From an uncultured Acidobacteriota bacterium (lineage in GTDB: Bacteria; Acidobacteriota; UBA6911; RPQK01; JAPXNP01): 64,000 nucleotides of DNA. Location: positions 320,001 through 384,000 of the forward strand of contig CAVZRV010000008.1 in assembly GCA_963777605.1 (NCBI GenBank), in the 5' to 3' direction. The translations under genes and the position numbers were made by a program. Shown here in pieces: positions 8,058 to 23,092 of this stretch; within the stretch, counting starts at the first letter, position 1; each line of letters begins with the position of its first letter. Under the pieces are notes generated by a model, which was given only the letters and a program-made list of their open reading frames with translations, searched no databases and was not told where the DNA came from.

Positions 8058-8368
8058 CGGAGTGATGAATCATTGAATCCAGGAACCCCGAATGGCCAGT
8101 CGCGAACTGAAAGTGCGAAATAGAATCCGTCCCTGCGATCAGGCAAGACTTCCGCACTACGGCTGTCGCGAAAGGAGGCAACGGAAGCATTCGCTTCCTG
8201 AAGACAATCGCAACTGGTTGACGCCGGGAGAAAGCGGAAGCTGCCGCTTCGCGCACTTCCATATCGGGCGTGCGACTTTCCCCCGTCGATCGATCCTGAG
8301 AATCCAAGTCCTGCGCCCGGCCGGGCAGAGGCTCGGACACCTCGGCAGACGTTCAGACCCGGAAGGGG

Positions 8369-9286
8369 CTAAATCATCAGCAGGCGGTCGATCCGCTTGC
8401 TGACGTCGGTCAGGTAGGCGAGGTCACCCGCGTCGAGTTCGGCGATCACGGTGCCTTCGTAGCCGATTTCGTCCAGGGCCTTGCGGACTTCGGGCCAGTC
8501 GATGTCGCCGTCGCCAAGGTTGACGAACTCCGCGCTGAAGGGGCTGAACCCGGTGGTCATCACCTTGAAGTCTTTAAGGTGAACCTTCTTGATTCGGTGG
8601 CCCAACGTGCGGATCCAGTCCTGCGGGTAGCCAAAGATGACCACGTTCCCGACGTCGAAGTAGGCTCGGACCCAGGGGCTCTTGAACTCGTCAACGTAGT
8701 TGGCGAATTCCATCGGGCTCAGGAGGAACTTGTTCCAGACCTCCTCGACCGCGATGGCTACCTTCAGTTCTTCGGCAAGGGGGATCAGTTCCCGGATGTG
8801 TCTCTGAGAGCGCTCGTAGGCGGTCCGGTAAGGAGTTGCGGCATCGACCACGGCGGGGACCAGCAGCACGGCGTCGGCTCCCCACAGCGAGGCGTTGCGA
8901 AGCGACGTGCGCATGCCGTCGAGGCTCTTCTTGACGACCTCGGGATCTCCGCTCGAGAGGGGGTAGGGCCAGTGGGCCTGGTTCATCACGGAACTGAGGC
9001 GGATCCCGGCTTTCTCCGCCGCCGTCTTGATTTTCTCCGCCTCGCGCGGGTCTTCGACGGTATACCCTTCGACCACCTCGAAGCCCGCATCCGCGGCGAG
9101 CTTCAACCGCTCGTCGTAGCTGAGCTCTTCGGGCAGCATGCCCCACACCACGCCCTTGGTGAGCTTGGCCTTCTTTGGAACGGCCATCGCCGGAGGAGCA
9201 CCGGCCAGGGAACTTATGATTCCCGCACCCGCAACCACGGCACCAGAAGTCTTGAGAAAATCTCGACGAGAAGATTCGTTATTCAT
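8369..9286 (-). CDS. Tat-exported sugar phosphate isomerase/epimerase (xylose isomerase-like TIM barrel)
   Basis: SRRDFLK Tat motif; EEVWNKFLLSP, YFDVGN and VHLKDF motifs. Confidence 0.9.
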   Translation of the reverse strand: MNNESSRRDFLKTSGAVVAGAGIISSLAGAPPAMAVPKKAKLTKGVVWGMLPEELSYDERLKLAADAGFEVVEGYTVEDPREAEKIKTAAEKAGIRLSSVMNQAHWPYPLSSGDPEVVKKSLDGMRTSLRNASLWGADAVLLVPAVVDAATPYRTAYERSQRHIRELIPLAEELKVAIAVEEVWNKFLLSPMEFANYVDEFKSPWVRAYFDVGNVVIFGYPQDWIRTLGHRIKKVHLKDFKVMTTGFSPFSAEFVNLGDGDIDWPEVRKALDEIGYEGTVIAELDAGDLAYLTDVSKRIDRLLMI

Positions 9287-9394
9287 GGAAATCTTTCCTT
9301 CCGCAGGAGTTGTTGAGCAAAATTCTACCCCACAAGGTACACCCTTTGAATCTTCCGCGCGTAGCGGGAGGGGCGCCGCTGACCTGAAACTTCA

Positions 9395-9764
9395 ATTTGG
9401 ATGAACTGGAAGAACTGGATGATTTGGACGCGTTTGGATGGGAATTCGGGCGATCGGTGGAGAGCCAGGGACGTGATTATCGGCTGGATCCTGGTTCCGG
9501 GTCCGGTGCCAGACGTGGATGAGTGATGATCACAGGATCGGCGCCGGACTGGCCCCTGAAGGGGGCCTGTTTCCAGCCCAGGCATTTGCCTGGGTTCACG
9601 GCCCACCCATCAAGAATCCAGCCCTGAAAGGGCGGCACAGCTCTCCGGACGTGAAGAATCGGCGCGACCTTACAGGCCGCAATCGAAATGCAGGACCACA
9701 AACCCAGGGAAAGCCCTGGGCTGGAACCAGGGCGCCTTCCAGCGCCATGAAGCCCGGCGTCGCC
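9395..9764. mobile_element. Non-coding cassette type A, copy 1
   Basis: Near-identical to 9823-10181, 11400-11753 and 15849-16205; bounded by array repeats; contains REP-like palindromes. Confidence 0.8.
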
Positions 9765-9822
9765 AGTTTCACTCTTTGAATGGTCCGGCGGCGGCCGGGG
9801 GCGGGGCTGACTTGAAACTTCA

Positions 9823-10181
9823 TTCGAGATGAGTTGGAAGAACCTGGACGAATTGGATGCGTCTGGACGGGGATTCGGGCGATCGGTGGAGAGCCAGGGA
9901 CGTGATTATCGGCTGGATCCTGGTTCCGGGTCCGGTGCCAGACGTGGATGAGTGATGATCACGGGATCGGCGCCGGACTGGCCCCTGAAGGGGGCCTGTT
10001 TCCAGCCCAGGCATTTGCCTGGGTTTACGGTCCACCCATCAAGAATCCAGCCCTGAAAGGGCGGCACAGCTCTCCGGACGTGAAGAATCGGCGCGACCTT
10101 ACAGGCCGCGATCGCCTTGCCGGGACCACAGACCCAGGGCAAGCCCTGGGCTGAAACCAAGGCGCCTCCAGCGCCAGGTCC
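9823..10181. mobile_element. Non-coding cassette type A, copy 2
   Basis: Same sequence family as 9395-9764; bounded by repeats. Confidence 0.8.
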
Positions 10182-10238
10182 AGTTTCACTGATTGAATGG
10201 TCCGGCGCCGCCGGGGGCGGGGCTGACTTGAAACTTCA

Positions 10239-10516
10239 ATCGAGATGAGTTCCTGGTTCCTGGTTTCTCGTTTCTGGAGGGAAAGTAATCCAGGCATCCC
10301 TGCCTGATATGGCGGCCGGGCAAGCTTGCCCGGCGGAAGTCAACCTTCTCAATCCCAGGTTTATTGATTTCCGGGTTCTTCTGAAATCAGTCCGCCACCG
10401 GGACTGAATCGCACTTTCAGTGCTGCATTGCCGTCTTGGCTCCGATTCCCGGGGCGTTGCCGCCGGGCTGGAAATGACCCTGCGCCGTTGGCGCGCTCAT
10501 CTGGCGATGCTTCACC
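10239..10516. mobile_element. Non-coding cassette type C
   Basis: Unique 278-bp unit between repeats; perfect 20-bp palindrome GCCGGGCAAGCTTGCCCGGC (10315-10334) and REP-like hairpins. Confidence 0.72.
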
Positions 10517-10573
10517 CGTTTCACTGATTGAATGGTCCGGCGCCGCCGGGGGCGGGGCTGACCTGAAACTTCA

Positions 10574-10931
10574 ATCTCGGCAATTCCGCTAACTCTTGTA
10601 TTCTGTGAGAGATGCTGCTGCCGCTGAGAACAGCGAGTGGCGAGAAAAAAGTCGTCTATCGAGCCGTTTGAGCGTGATGGGGACACCACGCCCAATCTCC
10701 GCGAATCCGCATGAGCAGGCTTTTCAAAAGGGGCATGAACGGTGGCCCGGGGTGGCTGTCTGAATGGTCTATTCTGACCTTGAGGAGTGCTCCAAGAGCC
10801 TCACTAATGAATGATCGCACAGCCCGGGACCAAGCTGACTTTGGGGCAAAAATGCGCCAGTGCCTCGAGGGTCTTAACTGCCACTGCTCATGCCGCGCAG
10901 TGGATTTTAATCGATTGATGCGGCCGCGGCA
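10574..10931 (-). mobile_element. Cassette type B: transposase-free unit carrying a bridge/seekRNA-like module, copy 1
   Basis: 10771-10882 aligns by eye at roughly three-quarters identity with the IS110 upstream non-coding region 13579-13690. Confidence 0.8.
10732..10894 (-). ncRNA. Putative orphan guide (bridge/seek-like) RNA
   Basis: Conserved core shared with the IS110 non-coding end, enclosed by a 15-bp inverted repeat (10732-10746 / 10880-10894); strand assumed from transposase orientation. Confidence 0.6.
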
Positions 10932-10981
10932 AGTTTCACTCTTTGAATGGTCCGGCGGCGCACGACTGACCTGAAACTTCA

Positions 10982-11339
10982 ATCTTGGGCAATTCCGCTA
11001 ACTCTTGTATTCTGTAGAGATGCCTGCCGCTGAGAACAGCGAGTGGTGAGAAAAAGTCATTCTATATCAAGAGCCGTTTGACGTGATGGGGACACCACGC
11101 CCAATACTCCGCAAATGCCATGAGCAGGCTTTTCAAAAGGGGCATGAACGGTGGCCCGGGGTGGCTGTCTGAATGGTCTATTCTGACCCTTTGAGAGATC
11201 TGAGCTAATGGAATTTGATCGCACAGCCCGGGACCAAGCTGACTTTGGGGCGAAAAAATGCACAGTGCCTCAGAGGGTCTTGACTGCCACTGCTGATGCC
11301 GCGCGGTGGAGGCTTAATGGATTAGATGGGGCCGGGCCA
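10982..11339 (-). mobile_element. Cassette type B, copy 2 (noisy or degenerate)
   Basis: Colinear with 10574-10931 but with many small indels and substitutions. Confidence 0.7.
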
Positions 11340-11399
11340 AGTTTCACACACCTGAAATGGTCCGGAGCGCCCGGGGAGCGGGGCTGACTTGAAACTTCA

Positions 11400-11753
11400 A
11401 TCGAGATGAGTTGAAGAGTCTGGATGATTTGGACGCGTCTGGACGGGAATTCGGGCGATCGGTGGAGAGCCAGGGACGCGATTATCGGCTGGATCCTGGT
11501 TCCTGGTCCGGTGCCAGACGTGGATGAGTGAAGATCACAGGATCGGCGCCGGGCTGGCCCCTGAAGGGGGCCTGTTTCCAGCCCAGGCATTTGCCTGGGT
11601 TTACGGTTCCCCCATCAAGAATCCAGCCCTGAAAGGGCGGCACAGCTCTCCGGACGTGAAGAATCGGCGCGACCTTACAGGCCGCGATCGAGTTGCGGGA
11701 CCACAGACCCAGGGCAAGCCCTGGGCTGAAACCAAGGCGCCCAGCGCCAGGTC
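11400..11753. mobile_element. Non-coding cassette type A, copy 3
   Basis: Same family as 9823-10181. Confidence 0.8.
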
Positions 11754-11790
11754 CGTTTCACTCTCTGAAGGATCCGCGGAGGGCGCGGGG

Positions 11791-11968
<178 letters not shown>

Positions 11969-12141
11969 ATGATCGACAGCTCGGGACCAAGCTGACTTTG
12001 GGGCAAAAACGCGCCAGTGCCTCGAGGGTCTTAACTGCCACTGCTCATGCCGCGCAGTGGATTTTAGTCGATTGATGCGGCGCGGCAAGTTTCACTCTCT
12101 GAATGATCCGGCGCCGCCGGGGGCCGGGCTGACTTGAAACT

Positions 12142-13518
12142 TCATCCTTGGACCTCCACCGGAACCAGTTTGTAGCCCATGGTTTGGGCCGTGCTGGTGA
12201 GGGACTGGAACCGTTTGAGCCGGTAGCGTGCTTCGTAGGCTTCGGCGCCTTCGTCGACATAGTCCTGACCGAAGCGGAGCATGCGGTAGATGTACTGAGC
12301 CAGTTTGCGGGCGGTGGCGAAGACGGCGGTGCCCCCTCCTTTGCGTCGGGCGATGTGGCGGAAGTAGGCTCCCATCGCCGACTGCGAATGTTTCAGGGAC
12401 AGCGCGGCCATCCTCAGGACATTGGCCACGCGGGTGGAGCCGGTGCCCTGGCGCCGTTTGCGCAGGGGTTTGCCGGCGGAGTAGGCGGTCTTTGGACTCA
12501 GTCGCAGCCAGGACACGAAGTGCTTTTCGACCGGAAACGCCGACAGATCCAGGCCGATCTCGCTGAGGATGAGTTGGGCCGCCGGCGCAGCGATGCCGTC
12601 GATCCGGGTCAGGTCCACGCCGGTCACCCGCCACAGCATCGTGCGTCGCTGCTGCTCTCCCCGTTTGTTCAGCGCCCGCTCCTTGGTGGGCTGGGGATGG
12701 GGCCCCGGCTCCTGATCGGCTCGGTCGCTCGCCTCGAGTCGGTGGAGCACGCGTCCGATCTCCTCGTCATAGTCGGCCAGTTGACCCTGCACGAAGTCAT
12801 ACCACTCCAACGCTTTGCCCAGGTTGAACAGGTGTTCCTCCCGCCACGTCCCCGTCAGATGCTCCGCTATTTTGGCTTCCGACTTCCGACAGCGCCGGTC
12901 CCGCAAAGCCGCCAGTCGAAACGGATCCCGTTCGCCGCCGACCATCGCCCGCACGATCGCCATTCCGGTCTGTCCCGTCAGATCCGTCACCGCCCGGTGC
13001 ACCTGCACGTTCATCTGGTCGAGCGCCTTCTGCATCATCTGCACCGCCTGCCCCGCCAGCCTCACCAGTCCGGCCCGCTCCCGCTCGAGCGCCCGCAACT
13101 GACAGATCGCTTCGGCGGGTCGGAACGATCCCCGCAGCAAACCACAACTGTGCAGCAACTGGATCCACTGGCAATCCTTGATGTCGGTCTTGCGGCCCGG
13201 GACGTACTTCAACTGCCGCGCATTGACCAGCACCACTTCGAATCCCCGCGACACCAACAGCTCGTACAGCGGGATCCAGTACACCCCGGTCGCTTCCATC
13301 GCCACCGATTCGATCCTGTCGGCCTCGAGTCGGTCCAATACCAACTCCAACTCCGGTGTCGTCGTCCCAAAACAAAGGACCTTCAACTGGCCCGTCTCCC
13401 GATCGGGCCAACACCCGGCGCTTTCGCACGAACCCAGATCGATTCCCGCCACCCGCTCCCGGATCACTCGCAAATCCTGTTGACGCTTCCGACTTCTCGA
13501 CTTCCGCTTCGATCTCAT
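12142..13518 (-). CDS. IS110-family DEDD recombinase/transposase (458 aa)
   Basis: AGIDLG, AMEATGVYW and RKTDIKD (DEDD); C-terminal IDGIA...LSEIGLDLSAF...LSPKTAYSAGK...ATARKLA; RBS AGGAGGA; stop TGA abuts the inverted repeat. Confidence 0.96.
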   Translation of the reverse strand: MRSKRKSRSRKRQQDLRVIRERVAGIDLGSCESAGCWPDRETGQLKVLCFGTTTPELELVLDRLEADRIESVAMEATGVYWIPLYELLVSRGFEVVLVNARQLKYVPGRKTDIKDCQWIQLLHSCGLLRGSFRPAEAICQLRALERERAGLVRLAGQAVQMMQKALDQMNVQVHRAVTDLTGQTGMAIVRAMVGGERDPFRLAALRDRRCRKSEAKIAEHLTGTWREEHLFNLGKALEWYDFVQGQLADYDEEIGRVLHRLEASDRADQEPGPHPQPTKERALNKRGEQQRRTMLWRVTGVDLTRIDGIAAPAAQLILSEIGLDLSAFPVEKHFVSWLRLSPKTAYSAGKPLRKRRQGTGSTRVANVLRMAALSLKHSQSAMGAYFRHIARRKGGGTAVFATARKLAQYIYRMLRFGQDYVDEGAEAYEARYRLKRFQSLTSTAQTMGYKLVPVEVQG

Positions 13519-13541
13519 GCTAGCTTTGTCCTCCTGGTGAA

Positions 13542-13704
13542 TCGGCACAGGCTCGGGCTCGAGGTGGCGTGAATTTGGATTCTGACTTCGGGGAGTGCCC
13601 TGAGCGGCCTCGCCAATGAATGATCGCCTCACTCGAAACCAGGCTGACTTTGGGGCAACATGCTCCAGTGCACAACGGGTCTGAACTGCCCGGGCCTGTG
13701 CCGA
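13542..13704 (-). ncRNA. Putative bridge/seekRNA of IS110 copy 1
   Basis: 17-bp closing inverted repeat (13542-13558 / 13688-13704) and internal hairpins; contains GATCATTCA and AAGTCAG, which match the element junctions. Confidence 0.65.
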
Positions 13705-13793
13705 ACGCAAGCATAGCCGACTCTCGCAGGCTTGGCTCAGTTTCACTCTCTGAATGGTCCGGCGGCGGCCGGGGGCGGGGCTGACTTGAAACT

Positions 13794-15170
13794 TCATCCT
13801 TGGACCTCCACCGGAACCAGTTTGTAGCCCATGGTTTGGGCCGTGCTGGTGAGGGACTGGAACCGTTTGAGCCGGTAGCGTGCTTCGTAGGCTTCGGCGC
13901 CTTCGTCGACATAGTCCTGACCGAAGCGGAGCATGCGGTAGATGTACTGAGCCAGTTTGCGGGCGGTGGCGAAGACGGCGGTGCCCCCTCCTTTGCGTCG
14001 GGCGATGTGGCGGAAGTAGGCTCCCATCGCCGACTGCGAATGTTTCAGGGACAGCGCGGCCATCCTCAGGACATTGGCCACGCGGGTGGAGCCGGTGCCC
14101 TGGCGCCGTTTGCGCAGGGGTTTGCCGGCGGAGTAGGCGGTCTTTGGACTCAGTCGCAGCCAGGACACGAAGTGCTTTTCGACCGGAAACGCCGACAGAT
14201 CCAGGCCGATCTCGCTGAGGATGAGTTGGGCCGCCGGCGCAGCGATGCCGTCGATCCGGGTCAGGTCCACGCCGGTCACCCGCCACAGCATCGTGCGTCG
14301 CTGCTGCTCTCCCCGTTTGTTCAGCGCCCGCTCCTTGGTGGGCTGGGGATGGGGCCCCGGCTCCTGATCGGCTCGGTCGCTCGCCTCGAGTCGGTGGAGC
14401 ACGCGTCCGATCTCCTCGTCATAGTCGGCCAGTTGACCCTGCACGAAGTCATACCACTCCAACGCTTTGCCCAGGTTGAACAGGTGTTCCTCCCGCCACG
14501 TCCCCGTCAGATGCTCCGCTATTTTGGCTTCCGACTTCCGACAGCGCCGGTCCCGCAAAGCCGCCAGTCGAAACGGATCCCGTTCGCCGCCGACCATCGC
14601 CCGCACGATCGCCATTCCGGTCTGTCCCGTCAGATCCGTCACCGCCCGGTGCACCTGCACGTTCATCTGGTCGAGCGCCTTCTGCATCATCTGCACCGCC
14701 TGCCCCGCCAGCCTCACCAGTCCGGCCCGCTCCCGCTCGAGCGCCCGCAACTGACAGATCGCTTCGGCGGGTCGGAACGATCCCCGCAGCAAACCACAAC
14801 TGTGCAGCAACTGGATCCACTGGCAATCCTTGATGTCGGTCTTGCGGCCCGGGACGTACTTCAACTGCCGCGCATTGACCAGCACCACTTCGAATCCCCG
14901 CGACACCAACAGCTCGTACAGCGGGATCCAGTACACCCCGGTCGCTTCCATCGCCACCGATTCGATCCTGTCGGCCTCGAGTCGGTCCAATACCAACTCC
15001 AACTCCGGTGTCGTCGTCCCAAAACAAAGGACCTTCAACTGGCCCGTCTCCCGATCGGGCCAACACCCGGCGCTTTCGCACGAACCCAGATCGATTCCCG
15101 CCACCCGCTCCCGGATCACTCGCAAACCCTGTTGACGCTTCCGACTTCTCGACTTCCGCTTCGATCTCAT
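13794..15170 (-). CDS. IS110-family DEDD recombinase/transposase (458 aa), second copy
   Basis: Translation identical to copy 1 except one D/G change near the N-terminus. Confidence 0.95.
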   Translation of the reverse strand: MRSKRKSRSRKRQQGLRVIRERVAGIDLGSCESAGCWPDRETGQLKVLCFGTTTPELELVLDRLEADRIESVAMEATGVYWIPLYELLVSRGFEVVLVNARQLKYVPGRKTDIKDCQWIQLLHSCGLLRGSFRPAEAICQLRALERERAGLVRLAGQAVQMMQKALDQMNVQVHRAVTDLTGQTGMAIVRAMVGGERDPFRLAALRDRRCRKSEAKIAEHLTGTWREEHLFNLGKALEWYDFVQGQLADYDEEIGRVLHRLEASDRADQEPGPHPQPTKERALNKRGEQQRRTMLWRVTGVDLTRIDGIAAPAAQLILSEIGLDLSAFPVEKHFVSWLRLSPKTAYSAGKPLRKRRQGTGSTRVANVLRMAALSLKHSQSAMGAYFRHIARRKGGGTAVFATARKLAQYIYRMLRFGQDYVDEGAEAYEARYRLKRFQSLTSTAQTMGYKLVPVEVQG

Positions 15171-15193
15171 GCTAGCTTTGTCCTCCTGGTGAA

Positions 15194-15356
15194 TCGGCAC
15201 AGGCTCGGGCTCGAGGTGGCGTGAATTTGGATTCTGACTTCGGGGAGTGCCCTGAGCGGCCTCGCCAATGAATGATCGCCTCACTCGAAACCAGGCTGAC
15301 TTTGGGGCAACATGCTCCAGTGCACAACGGGTCTGAACTGCCCGGGCCTGTGCCGA
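15194..15356 (-). ncRNA. Putative bridge/seekRNA of IS110 copy 2
   Basis: Same sequence as 13542-13704. Confidence 0.62.
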
Positions 15357-15448
15357 ACGCAAGCATAGCCGACTCTCGCAGGCTTGGCTCAGTTTCACTC
15401 TCTGAATGGTCCGGCGGCGGCCGGGGGCGGGGCTGACTTGAAACTTCA

Positions 15449-15791
15449 ATCGAGATGAATTGAAGACCTAACACTTGTATTCTCGTTTCTGGAGAGATTA
15501 TTATTGAGGCATCTGGGCCAGGACGTGATTATTTCGGCTGGATCTGGTTGGTAAGGTGACTGGATGAGTGATATTTTAACAGATCGGCCAAAAGGGCCCC
15601 TAAAGGGGGCCTGTTCTTCAGGATTTACTGGGTTCTTTTTTTATCGGCTTCCACTCATCAAGAATCAGCGCTGAAAGTGCTGAACAATGCCATCTCGGAC
15701 GAATGAGAATCAGAGGGAGACTTAGCCGCACAGCCGAGAAAAAAGACTCAGTGAAGCCCTTTGATAGCGCTGAACTGGGGAAGTTTCACCA
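15449..15791. other. Chimeric/noisy cassette (patchwork of A, B and C fragments)
   Basis: Contains C-like TCTCGTTTCTGGAG, B-like CTTGTATTCT and GAGAAAAAAG, and A-like GGACGTGATTAT, GGCCCCTAAAGGGGGCCTG and CATCAAGAATC. Confidence 0.6.
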
Positions 15792-15848
15792 AGTTTCACT
15801 CTTTGAATGATCCGGCGCCGCCAGAATTAAGACTGACTTGAAACTTCA

Positions 15849-16205
15849 AAATGGATGACTGGAAGAACCTGGATGATTTGGACGCGTTTGGATGGGAATT
15901 CGGGCGATCGGTGGAGAGCCAGGGACGTGATTATCGGCTGGATCCTGGTTCCGGGTCCGGTGCCAGACGTGGATGAGTGATGATCACAGGATCGGCGCCG
16001 GACTGGCCCCTGAAGGGGGCCTGTTTCCAGCCCAGGCATTTGCCTGGGTTCACGGCCCACCCATCAAGAATCCAGCCCTGAAAGGGCGGCACAGCTCTCC
16101 GGACGTGAAGAATCGGCGCGACCTTACAGGCCGCGATCGCCTTGCCGGGACCACAGACCCAAGGCAAGCCCTGGGCTGAAACCAAGGCGCCTCAGCGCCA
16201 GGTCG
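15849..16205. mobile_element. Non-coding cassette type A, copy 4
   Basis: Same family as 9395-9764. Confidence 0.8.
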
Positions 16206-16262
16206 AGTTTCACTCTCTGAATGGTCCGGCGGCGCCGGGGGCGCGGCTGACTTGAAACTTCA

Positions 16263-16555
16263 ATTTGGATGAACTGGAAATCCTGGATGATTTGGACGCG
16301 TCTGGATGGAGATTCGGGCGATCGGTGGAACTCAGAAGCCTGGTTCTCGGCTGGATCCTGGATACCCCGATTTCAGAACGCGAGTGTCAGCGAGCGCGGC
16401 TCCGGGCGATGGTGAGTCAGCGGAAGTGCTGCCGGAGGCCGGAACCGCGGGATGGAGTCAAGATCCGAGGTGGGCGATGGATGAAGGCCTGGATACGCGC
16501 GCGCTGACTTGCGTACTGAATGCGTGAAAACCGCGATCCCGGGCCGGAGTTGGCA
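16263..16555. mobile_element. Non-coding cassette type D
   Basis: First ~95 bp homologous to type A, followed by a different inverted-repeat pair (CAGAACGCGAGTGTCAGCGAGCGCG ... CGCGCGCGCTGACTTGCGTACTG). Confidence 0.68.
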
Positions 16556-16562
16556 AGCTTCA

Positions 16563-17074
16563 CTATTCGAATGATCCCCGCAGCGCGGAATCACTGGAAC
16601 CCGCCTGAAACTCGGGATCGATCGTCGCGAAATGGAGCAGGTCAAAGAATCCCAGGCGAAGCTGCTTCAACGCAAAGCTCAAGGCGATCAGCGGAAGGGT
16701 CGCGGATACCAGCAAAGTAATCCAGAATGCGGTTGGAATCTGGATTGTGCCCTGGATCGAATCGAGGATCACTAGACTGGCACCAAGTGTCAGGACCCAA
16801 TATGCCCATAAGAGAAGGCGCTTCCAGTGGCTCGAGGCCGCAGGAGTCGTGTCACGTGCCAAGGCGGCCTCAAGTTCCTGGTCAAACTGGGGAGAGAGGT
16901 GGGGAACGGGAAGCGCTGCCAAGCTTGGGCCAGTTCCTGGTGACCGAAAAGAGTATCCCGGCACTGATCGCAGATCTCGAGATGGGACTCCCATTGCCTG
17001 CGCTCTTCGCCCGATTTGAATGCTCCTTCGAAGAACCGCTCAATCTGGCCCAGGCTGGGGCAGTACTTATCCAT
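16563..17074 (-). CDS. Zinc-finger (zf-HC2) membrane anti-sigma factor (frameshifted near 16900-16960)
   Basis: HLEICDQC motif in the 5' frame; two hydrophobic helices in the 3' frame; directly downstream of an ECF sigma factor. Confidence 0.75.
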
Positions 17075-17075
17075 T

Positions 17076-17645
17076 TCAGACCTTGCCTCTCAGTGAACGT
17101 CCCAGCAACTTTCTTGCCCGGAACAGGTGAGACTTCACCGTCGAGGATTTGAGATCGAGATACTGCGCAATCTCCGCCACCGACTGGTCAAGCCAGTAGT
17201 GCAGGAAGACGACCGACCGAGCGGGTTCGGGAAGTCTCTCCACGCACTTCAGAATTCGCTCGTCGCGTTCGTGGTCGCTCGCCTTCCGCAGGGGACTTCG
17301 CCGGGGGGATGCCTGCGAGCGAAGCGTGCTTTCGCCCGAGTGGTGGAATTTAAGGCGGGGTTTCCGGCGCCAGTCGATCGAACGATTAAATGCAATCCGG
17401 TAAAGCCACGTGCTGAAACGGCTGTCAAAGCGAAACTGCTTCAGGTCCCGGTGGACCGTCAGAAACACCTCCTGCACGACTTCTTCGGCTTCTTCCGTGA
17501 ACGAGGGCCCGAGAACCGAGAGAACCAGTCGAAACACTTTCTCCTTGTAGCGACGAACGAGAATCGCAAAGAAGTGATCCTTCCCCGTCTTCAAATAGTG
17601 CCCGACCAGTTCCTCGTCTTTCCAGAGATCGGAGTTGTCGCTCAC
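17076..17645 (-). CDS. ECF RNA polymerase sigma factor
   Basis: AEEVVQEVFL, FSTWLYRIAFN and TVKSHLFRARKLL; start codon approximate. Confidence 0.92.
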   Translation of the reverse strand: MSDNSDLWKDEELVGHYLKTGKDHFFAILVRRYKEKVFRLVLSVLGPSFTEEAEEVVQEVFLTVHRDLKQFRFDSRFSTWLYRIAFNRSIDWRRKPRLKFHHSGESTLRSQASPRRSPLRKASDHERDERILKCVERLPEPARSVVFLHYWLDQSVAEIAQYLDLKSSTVKSHLFRARKLLGRSLRGKV

Positions 17646-17713
17646 CGCAGTTGGGGGAACGGTGTCCTTCAGCGGAACACAAAAGAAGTCGAGAGAGTAA
17701 GTCGCAGACAACA

Positions 17714-18145
17714 CTATTTTGATTTTAGGTCTTCCTTGAAACCCTTGCTCAAGAGGAAGAACAGAAGAAGGCCGAAGCCACAGAGTATTGGGATCAATCC
17801 GACCGTCCAGACGGGCTGAAGATCTAAGTTCCCGGAGAAGTGAAAGGCGATGCAAATGCCGATTCCAGCCGGAATCAGGAACAGTCCGAACCCCAGAGCG
17901 ATGAGCCGAACCCAAACGAGGACTTTCTCCTGCAGCGAACCATCCGACATCACCGTGTGTTCCGGGAGTTGGAGATTATCGATCGGCAGTCCTTTTTCCA
18001 TGGCCATAATCCTTTCCTTGTGAATCATTTCCCGCTGTTTGACCAGCGTCTGATCGAGCAGAAAGCGTTTTAGCATTCCGTAGCCGACAAATCCGAAGAC
18101 GACCAGCAAGAGAAACAACAGCACTTCCATCGTCCCTACCTCCAT
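17714..18145 (-). CDS. Membrane protein (DUF6249-like) heading the ECF operon
   Basis: TM helix, then HKERIMAMEKG, then two TM helices. Confidence 0.7.
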   Translation of the reverse strand: MEVGTMEVLLFLLLVVFGFVGYGMLKRFLLDQTLVKQREMIHKERIMAMEKGLPIDNLQLPEHTVMSDGSLQEKVLVWVRLIALGFGLFLIPAGIGICIAFHFSGNLDLQPVWTVGLIPILCGFGLLLFFLLSKGFKEDLKSK

Positions 18146-18425
18146 TTCTTACGAGACACCCTTTGGACGGAAGCGGCGGAGTTCCGGTTGCAGATTTCTT
18201 GAGAACCCGGGCAGGACAGTCTCCGATGTCGAAAGTGATGAAGGCTAAGACTGGCGCGAGCATGCCGTTGCTATTGCTTCGGGTCGGGACTTCTTCTCTC
18301 CTTTCAGGATGCGTTCACCAAGCCTGAAGTCGGAGTAAACAACTCGAGCTTCAGTCTCGAGTTCCCCACGAATCGATTGACCCGGCAAGTTGGGCTCTCT
18401 ATAACTGGTGTTGCGGGAGGTTCAC

Positions 18426-20282
18426 GTGAAGCATGCTCCGATCACGGTTTCAATCGTCCTCACTATCATCCTTGCTGCGGCAGCCGGTCTGGTCCAGCCT
18501 CAGGGTGAGTTCGTCTCTCCCTTCGAGATTCGAAAGGAGATGATCCCCATGCGGGACGGAATCCGCCTGAACACTCGGATCTTCATCCCCCGCGACCAGC
18601 CGGAGCCGCTCCCCATCATCCTGATTCGGAGCCCTTACGGTGTTGCGGGGGCAGAAGGGAACTTCGTTACTGCGCTGAAGACCCTGGCTGATGAAGGCTA
18701 CATCTTTGCCTTCCAGGACATTCGCGGCAAATTCGAGTCGGAAGGCGAGTTTGTGATGCAGCGCCCGGCTCGCGAGCCAGGAGATTCCACTGCTCTCGAT
18801 GAAGGAACCGACACCTACGACACGATCGAGTGGATGCTTGAGAACGTGACCCCGAACAACGGCCGGGTCGGCATGCTGGGAGTATCCTATCTCGGTTGGA
18901 CGACCATCATGGCGTCGCTGGAGCCTCACCCTGCATTGAAGGCGATTTCCCCCCAGGCTTCACCCGCCGATATGTGGATTGGGGACGACTTCCACCACAA
19001 CGGCGCATTCCGCCTCAGCTATGCGTTCGAATACGCCTACCAGGTGGATGGTGGTAAGGCGTCCCAGCACTTTCCCTTTGACCGCTACGACACCTATGAC
19101 TGGTACCTGGCTCTGGGCCCGCTCTCCAATGTCAATCCGCGTTTCTTTCACGGGGAGATCCCAACCTGGAACGACTACGTGGCCCATCCCGACTACGATG
19201 CCTTCTGGAAGCGTCAGACTCTGATTCCCCGGATCACCGGTGTGAAGGTGCCCACCCTGAACGTCGCGGGCTGGTGGGACCAGGAAGACTTCTACGGCCC
19301 CCTGCGTATTTATGAAACATTGGAAAGGTACGATTCAGCAGGTATGAACTACCTGGTGGTGGGTCCCTGGAACCATGGAGGATGGGCACGGGGAAACGGT
19401 TCCAGCCTTGGTCCCATCCCTTTCGACAGTTCCACCTCCCGCTACTTTCGTGACGAGGTGCAGGCCCCGTGGTTCGCGTATTTTCTGAAGGACAAGGGCC
19501 GGCTGCAGCTTCCGGAAGCGCTCACCTTTGAAGCTGGGTCGAACCGTTGGCGACGATGGGACTCGTGGCCGCCCCGCTCCCGGGTCGAGCGCCGTGACCT
19601 GTACTTCAGTTCCGACGGAATCCTGGCCGATATGGCACCCGAGGAGGGAACTGGAGCATTCGATAGCTACGTCTCTGACCCGGCTCACCCGGTTCCCTAC
19701 CGCCACCAGCCGATCCAGGCGACCTATTTCCCGGGTGGTTCCTCCTGGAGCACGTGGCTTGTTGAGGACCAGCGCTTCGTCGATGACCGGGCCGACGTTT
19801 TGAGCTGGGAGAGCGCTCCCCTGGAGCAGGAACTCACGATAGCCGGGGAGGTCGTGGCCCATCTCTTTGCATCTACCAGTGGAACTGACGCGGATTGGGT
19901 CGTCAAGCTGATCGACGTCTTTCCGGAGTACTACCCGGAGAATTGGGAACTGGCCGGTTACCAGTTAATGGTCTCAAACGAGGTCTTTCGTGGCCGATAC
20001 CGGGAGAGTTTCGAGAAGCCGGAACCGATCGAAGCCGGCGAGGTCCTGGAATACAACTTCAGTCTCCACACTCAGAATTACTCATTCCTCAAGGGACATC
20101 GAATCATGGTCCAGGTCCAGAGCACCTGGTTCCCTTTGATCGACCGAAACCCGCAGACCTTCGTAGAGAACATCTTCAAGGCGGGGGCCGCGGATTTTCG
20201 GGTTGCCGAAAACCGCGTTTACCGTACCGCCGAGTTCCCGTCCGGTGTTTCCATTCCCGTGGTTGCCGGCCCTCCTGAGTGA
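18426..20282 (+). CDS. CocE/NonD family hydrolase (alpha-amino acid ester hydrolase-like)
   Basis: IPMRDGIRL, QDIRGKFESEG, nucleophile motif GVSYLG, GDDFHHNGAF and GPWNHGGW; signal peptide. Confidence 0.93.
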   Translation: MKHAPITVSIVLTIILAAAAGLVQPQGEFVSPFEIRKEMIPMRDGIRLNTRIFIPRDQPEPLPIILIRSPYGVAGAEGNFVTALKTLADEGYIFAFQDIRGKFESEGEFVMQRPAREPGDSTALDEGTDTYDTIEWMLENVTPNNGRVGMLGVSYLGWTTIMASLEPHPALKAISPQASPADMWIGDDFHHNGAFRLSYAFEYAYQVDGGKASQHFPFDRYDTYDWYLALGPLSNVNPRFFHGEIPTWNDYVAHPDYDAFWKRQTLIPRITGVKVPTLNVAGWWDQEDFYGPLRIYETLERYDSAGMNYLVVGPWNHGGWARGNGSSLGPIPFDSSTSRYFRDEVQAPWFAYFLKDKGRLQLPEALTFEAGSNRWRRWDSWPPRSRVERRDLYFSSDGILADMAPEEGTGAFDSYVSDPAHPVPYRHQPIQATYFPGGSSWSTWLVEDQRFVDDRADVLSWESAPLEQELTIAGEVVAHLFASTSGTDADWVVKLIDVFPEYYPENWELAGYQLMVSNEVFRGRYRESFEKPEPIEAGEVLEYNFSLHTQNYSFLKGHRIMVQVQSTWFPLIDRNPQTFVENIFKAGAADFRVAENRVYRTAEFPSGVSIPVVAGPPE

Positions 20283-20554
20283 CCTTTCCTCGGAATTTCC
20301 CGTTCGAGGGTAAGCCGGAATTGCAGAGGTGTATCAGAAATGAAGTGGCGGGCTGCCGCTACATCGGGATTCGGGAGCCGATTACCGCCTTACGATAATT
20401 GCTTCCGCGGCGGTCACGGAGAAGGATTGAGGTTCTTGACCGCGTTTTGAAAGTTCCCGGCTGCAGCGTCCGCGGTGCCCTTCGGGACTACGATGTCCTT
20501 GAGGTTTCCGGAAGCCTCCACCATCTCAAGGGCGCCTTTGCGTGCTTGGTTGCA

Positions 20555-21025
20555 CTACCTGGGTGGCGGCGCAACCGTCATGCCGTGCCGCCGGAAGACC
20601 TCGGTCATCTTGGCAGGATCGGGCGGACCGCCGCCGGCGCCATTGATCACCTCAGCCGCTTCACGGAAGTATGCCGGCCCCATGATTGCGGGGGTGATGA
20701 CGGCGAGTTGCTTGACGTCTTCACTCCCAAAGTTGTCGAATCGGTGTACCGCGCCGCGGGGTATGCAGAGTGCCTCGCCGGGGCCCACTTCGACGGGAGT
20801 GCCATCGACGGTCCACGTCAGGGTGCCCTCGATACCGTAGAGGACTTCCTCGTAGTCGTTGTTCCTGTGGGCCGGTGCCGCCAGCTTCTCTCCGGCCGGG
20901 ACTCGGAACTCGAAAACAGAGACGCTTCCGCGGGAATCATCGGCCGTCAACAGGAACCGAATTCCCAGCGGACCAATATGGATGGACTCTTCCGAAGGAT
21001 TCACCTGGATCTTCTGGCGGTGCAT
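20555..21025 (-). CDS. Cupin domain protein
   Basis: PAHRNNDYEEVLYGIEG and GPGEALCIPRGAVHRF; RBS AAGGAGG. Confidence 0.88.
   Translation of the reverse strand: MHRQKIQVNPSEESIHIGPLGIRFLLTADDSRGSVSVFEFRVPAGEKLAAPAHRNNDYEEVLYGIEGTLTWTVDGTPVEVGPGEALCIPRGAVHRFDNFGSEDVKQLAVITPAIMGPAYFREAAEVINGAGGGPPDPAKMTEVFRRHGMTVAPPPR

Positions 21026-23015: not shown

Positions 23016-23092
<77 letters not shown>

Follow-up and report, generated by a model that had tools for sequence, protein, structure and literature searches.

A probable non-autonomous IS110-type cassette with its own predicted bridge RNA in a repeat array of an uncultured Acidobacteriota bacterium

Bridge RNAs are known from autonomous insertion sequences (IS) of the IS110 family, in which they are as a norm encoded beside the recombinase gene and on the same strand, and as guides that are supplied in trans in the laboratory. 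The subject of this report is a cassette of 408 bp, referred to as type B, in a 64,000-nt stretch of DNA from an uncultured Acidobacteriota bacterium (GenBank assembly GCA_963777605.1, contig CAVZRV010000008.1, positions 320,001 to 384,000 of the forward strand), which is called the window in the following and the first letter of which is position 1. Type B has no transposase gene and contains a homolog of the bridge RNA of a neighboring IS110 element; it departs from the norm just given, and its RNA is for this reason called an orphan. We consider it likely that type B is a non-autonomous derivative, similar to a miniature inverted-repeat transposable element (MITE), of an ISPpu9-like branch of the IS110 family, that it carries its own bridge RNA and that it is mobilized in trans, the cassette probably hitch-hiking on the enzyme of the neighboring element. 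The locus would then provide evidence, from sequence, for a guide that is mobile alone.

In the bridge RNA of IS621 the left-target and left-donor guides have the sequence of the top strand in the left half of target and donor, respectively, the core included (PMC11208160, PMC11208158), the order within a domain is stem, left guide, stem-loop and right guide (PMC11208158), and the RNA has been found to function in trans experimentally (PMC11208160, PMC11208158). The RNA family of type B is like that of IS621 in that the RNA precedes the gene of a DEDD/Ser recombinase within the left end, has a target and a donor domain, and contains left guides. It differs in that its recombinase is only distantly related to that of IS621, in that the core is AG rather than CT, and in that a long closing stem surrounds both domains. 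Many bridge-RNA structures depart from that of IS621 (10.64898/2026.10.21.760802).

ISPpu9 of Pseudomonas putida KT2440 is an IS110-family element that inserts in repetitive extragenic palindromic (REP) sequences, has an AG core and has at its left end a palindrome, the A box, that is like its REP target (PMC12288879). The ssr9 element (MITEPpu9) has IS-like end boxes and no transposase, depends on the transposase for the formation of circles, and occurs beside the IS, alone and, in some strains, in tandem (PMC12288879). Its RNA, Ssr9, is partly complementary to Asr9, an antisense RNA of the 5′ untranslated region (5′ UTR) of the transposase, and was interpreted as a sponge (PMC8450116). Type B shares with MITEPpu9 a REP-inserting IS110 partner, the AG core, a target-like left palindrome, the lack of a transposase and a small-RNA gene related to the 5′ UTR of the transposase. 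However, Ssr9 has been read as a sponge and not as a bridge RNA, and in the available text of these papers a matching of guide to end is not reported, whereas the type B RNA, as compared with Ssr9 by description, is a full two-domain homolog of a bridge RNA whose donor guide tracks the element's own end.

Tandem IS110 modules and tandem non-coding repeat units beside IS110 transposases have been described, the repeat boundaries of which keep the left-donor matches and for which a trans-acting bridge RNA was suggested (10.64898/2026.08.14.744561); in the available part of that text the units are not described as independent elements with their own, self- or partner-tuned bridge RNA. A full-text literature search for non-autonomous, MITE-type or orphan IS110 elements with a bridge RNA returned the ISPpu9 paper as the sole relevant match. 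We therefore do not claim that the kind of element is new. What we present as new is a transposase-less IS110 cassette with a full bridge RNA the guides of which follow the end of the cassette itself or that of its partner. Such cassettes would show how MITE-like elements can hitch-hike on IS110 elements, would allow Ssr9 of ISPpu9 to be read anew, would explain tandem arrays of these elements and of REP-like repeats, and would offer natural RNA pairs that have few differences and come with their cognate DNA ends, suitable for experiments on specificity in an architecture unlike that of IS621.

The type B cassette and its RNA

Type B stands in a cassette array (9376–16262, minus strand) in which the cassettes are set apart by a REP-like repeat of approximately 57 nt. 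The complete copy, B1 (10558–10965, minus strand; 408 bp including one AG core), consists, when read on the minus strand, of the left end at 10965, the RNA, a tail of approximately 160 nt and the right end at 10558. The left end (10933–10965) is an arm of the REP-like palindrome with the terminus ...GTGAAAC, and the right end (10558–10573) reads TGAAGTTTCAGGTCAG, the AG core included. These boundaries were set from repeat variants that travel with B and by analogy with the ends of the IS, which were deduced from multi-copy relatives. A preliminary description, made from the letters alone, had placed type B cassettes at 10574–10931 and 10982–11339 (86.5% identical, with indels) and a partial one at 11969–12087, all of which are present. 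The second copy, B2 (10966–11383, minus strand), is decayed or badly assembled: its RNA (11141–11300) has lost one hairpin of the donor domain. The partial copy (11966–12128, minus strand) is cut by a stretch of approximately 160 T followed by approximately 15 G (11794–11968), which almost certainly arose as an artefact of the assembly or of the reads and which, because it directly precedes the partial copy, makes this copy uninterpretable; B2 may also suffer from it.

That B lacks a transposase was likewise borne out. In B no recombinase gene was found by tblastn with the transposase of the resident IS, the nearest copy of which starts 1.2 kb away, and none of the three open reading frames overlapping B has a Pfam domain at E ≤ 0.1. 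Genome-wide the same search found only four copies of the transposase gene, namely two in the window and two on contig C24, a contig of 13.8 kb that is a second strain or haplotype version of positions 8060–20592 of the window.

The B1 RNA (10732–10894, minus strand; approximately 163 nt) was recognized with two models. The first, R1, was built from eight sequences folded with RNAalifold (36 pairs, 16 with compensatory change); it gives B1 144.7 bits and B2 83.5 bits and finds twelve places in the genome of the window, four of them linked to a transposase and eight not, the latter being B1, B2, partial B, C21, C51 and three on C24. Because R1 includes sequences of the window itself, a second model, R2, was made, for which 10 transposase-linked RNAs were used, all of them from other genomes. 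In the whole 64-kb window R2 has five hits, all on the minus strand: B1 with 113.2 bits (E = 6e-24), the two resident IS RNAs with 109.3 bits each, B2 with 59.9 bits and partial B with 43.6 bits. Rfam contains no family that matches the array at its gathering score, nor at E ≤ 10 beyond hits of chance level. Judged by its homology to transposase-linked RNAs, the B1 RNA can be classed as a predicted IS110-family bridge RNA. It did not arise recently as a copy of the resident IS RNA, to which its identity in a full alignment is 65%; an orphan RNA from another genome (G056) is closer, with 74% identity.

The structure was tested on a MAFFT alignment of 18 distinct sequences that was not fitted to a model. 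Left out of it were the G031 and Fulvivirga RNAs, which score weakly (27.7 and 24.7 bits), B2, partial B, duplicates, and the truncated L112, L122 and L129. The consensus has 34 pairs in seven helices, and 18 of these pairs show changes on both sides across the 18 lineages. In these sequences 94.6% of the paired cells can pair as compared with 82.4% in shuffles, none of 500 shuffles reached the observed value on any of five measures, and sliding the partners by one to three columns lets the pairing fall to between 25 and 53%. Many of the pairs are G-U (for example, U-G at one pair in 15 of the 18 sequences) and would be mismatches on the other strand, in agreement with the minus-strand sense that the RNA has in common with the transposase. 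In B1 the closing stem, formed by 10880–10894 with 10732–10746, surrounds a predicted target-binding domain and a predicted donor-binding domain; a pair of structured, internally looped domains of this kind, assigned to target and donor respectively, is what a bridge RNA is expected to have.

These results agree with what the preliminary description had said of the RNA, namely that it is an orphan, diverged paralog of the non-coding RNA of the IS with the behavior of a bridge or guide RNA; the model scores and the guide matches given below speak for it, and the covariation among folded and aligned homologs, which it had named as a check, is the one just reported. The similarity between the cores at 10771–10882 and 13579–13690, estimated there at about three-quarters, is 76.1% over 113 nt (E = 2e-14). 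The inverted repeats enclosing the cores are 94% complementary over 17 nt in the IS (13542–13558 with 13688–13704) and 87% complementary over 15 nt in B (10732–10746 with 10880–10894), and the small GAAT...ATTC hairpin occurs in both with differing loops (GAAUCCAAAUUC in the IS and GAAUAGACCAUUC in B, minus strand). The closing stem is indeed compensated: when IS and B are compared by their pairing arms, 6 of 15 pairs differ, five of them on both sides and still paired and one having become G-U, with pair 10 being a mismatch in both. It may be added that the 5′ arm of the B closing stem has, with 10884–10893, a second perfect 10-nt partner at 10709–10718, downstream of the RNA, which could be an alternative fold or the remnant of a duplication.

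Upstream of the RNA, at 10904–10932 on the minus strand, B1 has a sigma-70-like promoter sequence (TTGCCG, 17 nt, TAAAAT), which is recognized by consensus match alone, stops 12 nt short of the RNA model match and compares with 0.4 such sites expected in shuffles. A strict site (TTGnnn, 16–18 nt, TAnnnT) is found in 3 of the 18 lineages, all three of them orphans, and in none of the 11 transposase-linked ones, the mean in shuffles being 0.06; this is suggestive at most. A promoter conserved across the RNA family was considered and rejected, the strict site occurring in just these 3 of 18 lineages. A terminator scan found no terminator in B.

Besides the decayed and the partial copy, the genome contains seven full copies of B that are 99.4–100% identical and are distributed over the loci C8, C24, C21 and C51. 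Between C24 and C8 the B cassettes are 99.4–100% and the IS 99.6% identical, whereas the flanks are approximately 93% and the type A cassettes approximately 92% identical. Near-identity of B and IS amid flanks and A cassettes of 92–93% would be the pattern expected from recent activity.

Guides and the DNA that they match

The resident IS is present in two direct tandem copies on the minus strand. Copy 1 (12129–13780; 1652 bp, counted with one core) contains the transposase gene at 12142–13518 and the bridge RNA at 13544–13702 with the target guide at 13644–13651 and the donor guide at 13582–13589, and its right end is ...TTTCAAGTCAG; copy 2 (13781–15432) has the transposase at 13794–15170 and the RNA at 15196–15354. 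The transposase has 458 amino acids and the Pfam domains DEDD_Tnp_IS110 (E = 1e-20) and Transposase_20 (E = 6e-10), and in a PDB search its sole match was 8wt6, the IS621 transposase (E = 2.4e-5). In the IS RNA the Shine-Dalgarno region of the transposase (13528–13538) can pair, in minus-strand RNA, with the region of the target guide (13638–13648) over 11 nt with 82% complementarity, which recalls the structured 5′ UTR of ISPpu9 that buries the ribosome-binding site.

The ends of the IS can be read from relatives that occur in many copies. Genome G029 of the same order has 15 matches to the transposase with 52–56% identity, 14 of them full-length, and the eight IS copies fetched from it share 1676–1723 bp at 94.5–100% identity. 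All compared copies have the right end ...ATCAAGTTTCAGCTTAG, their right flanks are unrelated, and the left end opens with the REP-like palindrome. The left flank contains a 17-mer that is similar to the right end; it varies among the copies and is therefore derived from the target. The same anatomy of the ends was found in a metagenome-assembled genome (MAG) of the Bryobacterales (58% identity, approximately 60 loci fetched; ends ...CACACCAG) and in a MAG of the Planctomycetota (51% identity, approximately 20 loci fetched; ends ...CAGGTCAG). From the comparison of the ends in these three genomes the crossover is placed at the AG core. Right end and left end together restore a complete REP-like repeat; the repeat between two cassettes of the array is accordingly the right end of one plus the left-end palindrome of the next. 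An independent observation fits this: on the plus strand the repeat to the left of every B reads GACCTGAAAC rather than GACTTGAAAC, and this C/T variant travels with B in seven of seven copies. B and the IS have the same REP-like palindrome at the left and the AG core at both ends, and their right ends differ at one of the last 16 nt.

In B1 the left-target guide AAAGUCAG (10835–10842) is on the 3′ strand of domain 1, and the left-donor guide AAGGUCAG (10774–10781) is in domain 2, where the small hairpin (10762–10774) comes next, all on the minus strand. The resident IS has the target guide CAAAGUCAG, the donor guide CGAAGUCAG (AAGUCAG) and the right end given above, the form of the IS end being ...CAAGTCAG. 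B has the same target guide, CAAAGUCAG, together with the donor guide CAAGGUCAG (AGGUCAG) and the right end ...TTTCAGGTCAG. The variable 4-mer is, in guide and end alike, AGTC in the IS and GGTC in B: the right ends of B (...CAGGTCAG) have GGTC in all seven full copies (6/6 in the genome-wide count) and those of the IS have AGTC in 4/4. Since the change in the donor guide is mirrored in the right end of the cassette itself, B can be regarded as a complete mobile cassette of left end, RNA and right end.

This correspondence is not restricted to the window. Guide positions were taken from the model alignment, and right ends were taken as the first downstream TTT[CT]A-N4-AG, so that the variable bases had no influence on the choice. 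Of 19 elements examined, four had no right end inside the locus; in 14 of the 15 compared, the 4-mer of the domain-2 guide is the 4-mer of the element's own right end, seven different 4-mers being represented. The exception is a tandem orphan junction in the Bryobacterales MAG, at which the target 4-mer of the adjoining copy is found. The domain-1 guide corresponds to the left flank in 45 of 57 IS loci of the Bryobacterales and in all 14 Planctomycetota loci with a located left end; three Bryobacterales and four Planctomycetota loci could not be placed. In G029 a variant IS (94% identical) with the guide ...AAGGUUAG is inserted at ...CAGGTTAG (GG guide, GG site), and the main type with the guide ...AAUCUUAG is inserted at ...CA[T/G]CTTAG. 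It should be noted that relatives are not independent and that the counts of guide matches are inflated by relatedness; guide and DNA have, however, changed together several times. The left junction of B is ...CAAGTCAG (AGTC) at all four copies with a non-B neighbor, which matches the target guide.

The preliminary description had gone further and taken the short internal segments that vary between the IS and B RNAs as the sign of a second, differently programmed guide RNA acting in trans. That the programming differs holds for the donor guide, at one informative position; however, the segments that vary are for the most part not guides, and the target guide is the same as in the IS. The trans-acting component is better read as the recombinase, the B RNA being apparently programmed for the end of its own cassette.

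Further segments of the RNA were compared with the DNA. As right guides, the variable 5′ strand of domain 1 and the conserved motif [A/G]G[U/C]GAGG of domain 2 were rejected after inspection by eye, the pairing being inconsistent. The 5′ strand of the donor domain (e.g., 10813–10825, minus strand) matches the distal arm of the left-end palindrome (e.g., 10940–10952) in the same sense over 6–9 nt; with a longest common substring of on average 6.5 for cognate and 5.3 for non-cognate combinations this is too weak for a guide. Lineage-specific variants of this segment, shared by donor domain and left end, are ATGATTC in G029, GATCGT in G065, CCAATC in G067 and G062, and CCTTCA in the Planctomycetota. 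The two bases 3′ of the AG of the target guide (e.g., 10833–10834 and 13642–13643, minus strand) agree, by eye, with the opening base or pair of bases of the element's own left end in several lineages (CC in the resident IS, UC/TC in the Bryobacterales and Planctomycetota, CC in G074 and UC in G031), which is reminiscent of the handshake guides of IS621.

The proposed course of events would be the following. The B RNA would be transcribed from the cassette and bind the DEDD/Ser recombinase from the two IS copies 1.2 kb away; the guide of the target domain (AAGUCAG) would pair with the left half of a REP-like site; and recombination at the common AG core would excise B as a circle and insert it into REP-like sites. 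Because right and left end rebuild the repeat, each insertion would regenerate such sites and the cassettes would pile up in arrays.

Orphan RNA elements in other genomes and the explanations for type B

Among 76 genomes of the order, 14 contain a match to R1 (13 of 75 if the unpublished genome G018 is set aside), and 11 of the 30 loci fetched around the hits have no transposase by tblastn, two of the eleven being B copies from the window's genome and two others being cut by contig ends. In G056 there is one complete orphan with both ends (L106), having the guides AAGGUCAG and CAGGUCAG and the end ...CAGGTCAG. G030 (95% complete, four contigs) has five RNA hits; two of them, L107 and L118, are complete orphans with the donor guide UAGAUCAG and the ends ...[C/T]AGATCAG, and these two and L127 are dispersed orphan elements of full length. 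In the Bryobacterales MAG (G076, CBDCOC01) at least 17 of the 100 matches listed have 147.0 bits, the score of the orphan, and the orphans form runs of up to five with a spacing of 346–438 bp that adjoin IS copies. The guides are swapped there: the target guide of the orphan, ACACCAG, is the right end of the IS, and the target guide of the IS, AAGCCAG, is the right end of the orphan; the left flanks of the IS read CAAGCCAG in 29 of 57 cases. The swapped guides can be seen in L033 (1–925) and L027 (2580–3070), and the right end of the IS also occurs there as tandem repeats of 75 bp.

That type B is a cassette mobilized in trans with its own bridge RNA rests on the homology and structure of the RNA, on the match and covariation of the guides with target and donor DNA, on the presence of both ends and on near-identical copies at several loci; transcription of B, binding of the recombinase, formation of circles and insertion would be the processes behind this pattern. 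Several findings weigh against it. The order of elements departs from that of IS621, the guides being 3′ of a hairpin on the 3′ strand in both domains, and no right-target or right-donor guide could be identified when the loop strands were compared by eye with the right flanks and with the beginnings of the left ends. B and IS differ in guide and end by one informative base; should one mismatch be tolerated, B may not need to be programmed for itself. The three tandem junctions between B copies (...CAGGTCAG, GGTC) have one mismatch to the B target guide. A clean pair of empty and occupied sites was not found for B, the intergenic regions of C21 and C15 differing beyond the cassette. Cassette copy numbers are uncertain because of the artefact in the array, the 5.7% contamination of the genome bin, and the second version of the array locus on C24 that the bin contains.

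It is also conceivable that B is an inert relic with an idle RNA, namely the decayed left end that remained of an IS copy, now extinct, after its gene had been deleted, and that it was spread by recombination or unequal crossing-over between REP-like repeats. Every B copy is located between such repeats, homologous recombination among which could have spread it, and B2 is visibly decayed. Truncated transposase genes adjoin RNA hits in G044 and G067, and for the recombinase there was no match in G030 at E ≤ 0.001 with the resident transposase as the one query; as G030 has kept its RNAs nevertheless, such RNA elements can persist as relics. We regard a relic as unlikely in the case of B, however. 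On the independent model R2, B1 outscores the resident IS RNA (113.2 versus 109.3 bits), all of its helices are intact, and five pairs of its closing stem are compensated. Both ends are present, and the donor guide fits the end of B and not that of the IS. Between the two versions of the locus the B copies are far more alike (99.4–100%) than the flanks (approximately 93%), and identities of 65% to the resident IS RNA and of 74% to a foreign orphan are those of a long-lived lineage under constraint. Quite improbable in our opinion is a purely regulatory function, in which the B RNA would modulate the IS by titrating the recombinase or an antisense RNA and would guide nothing. Ssr9 of a comparable element is partly complementary to Asr9 and has been read in the available text as a sponge of this type (PMC8450116, PMC12288879), and with a target guide that is the same as in the IS the B RNA could compete for recombinase and target sites. 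A pure decoy, however, needs no donor guide that tracks its own right end, as is seen in B and in foreign orphans. This does not mean that B could not be both: the regulatory and the guiding role do not exclude each other.

There remains the resemblance to an integron, in which the repeats of approximately 57 nt would be attC-type sites of a tyrosine integrase and B would be one non-coding cassette among others. Regular arrays of short cassettes, each with a terminal imperfect palindrome, are indeed found at several loci. However, the gene beside the array, to which the search for an integrase was confined, encodes a TIM-barrel protein and not an integrase, and the crossover point deduced from the repeat variants coincides with the AG core of IS110-type ends. 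The outer inverted arms of the repeat also appear to be opposite in polarity to attC core sites. An integron-like origin of the array is therefore hardly credible to us.

The reading of B as a cassette mobilized in trans can be extended to a stronger proposal, namely that transposase-less bridge-RNA cassettes naturally reprogram a resident IS110 recombinase in trans, which we consider possible but doubtful. If it were true, the guide of the IS would serve ends of the type ...AGTCAG and that of B ends of the type ...GGTCAG, in agreement with the two classes of ends in the genome, where 23 REP-like or cassette ends have AGTC and 35 have GGTC(AG), RNA-less A and C3 cassettes of both types included. 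Through the B RNA a whole further population of passenger cassettes, B among them, would then become open to mobilization, and IS and B would together build integron-like, strain-variable arrays of cassettes. In the Bryobacterales MAG orphan and IS would have a reciprocal landing-pad relationship, each targeting the end of the other.

The array and its other cassettes

On the plus strand the order in the array is A, A, C3, B1, B2, A, the poly-T/poly-G artefact, partial B, IS, IS, C10, A and partial A. To its left lies a gene for a TIM-barrel protein with a TAT signal. The type A cassettes are at 9395–9765, 9823–10182, 11400–11754 and 15849–16206, the C3 cassette at 10239–10517 and the C10 cassette at 15449–15792. 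The imperfect palindrome of approximately 57 nt has 103 BLAST matches in the genome, approximately 11 of them in the array. On C24 the order of the cassettes is unlike that on C8, with three B, four A in a row and two IS copies, from which it follows that the array is strain-variable.

In the A, C3 and C10 cassettes no bridge RNA was found above 8.5 bits (model R1, filters off). These cassettes share the end structure of IS and B and are candidate passengers of a system made up of the two. Type A has 97 and C3 has 87 BLAST matches genome-wide, many of them partial. The right ends of type A fall in both classes, nine with AGTC and nine with GGTC, and the cassette contains several conserved hairpins. 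Outside the array, a tRNA gene at 23019–23092 on the minus strand is the sole Rfam match in the window at gathering score.

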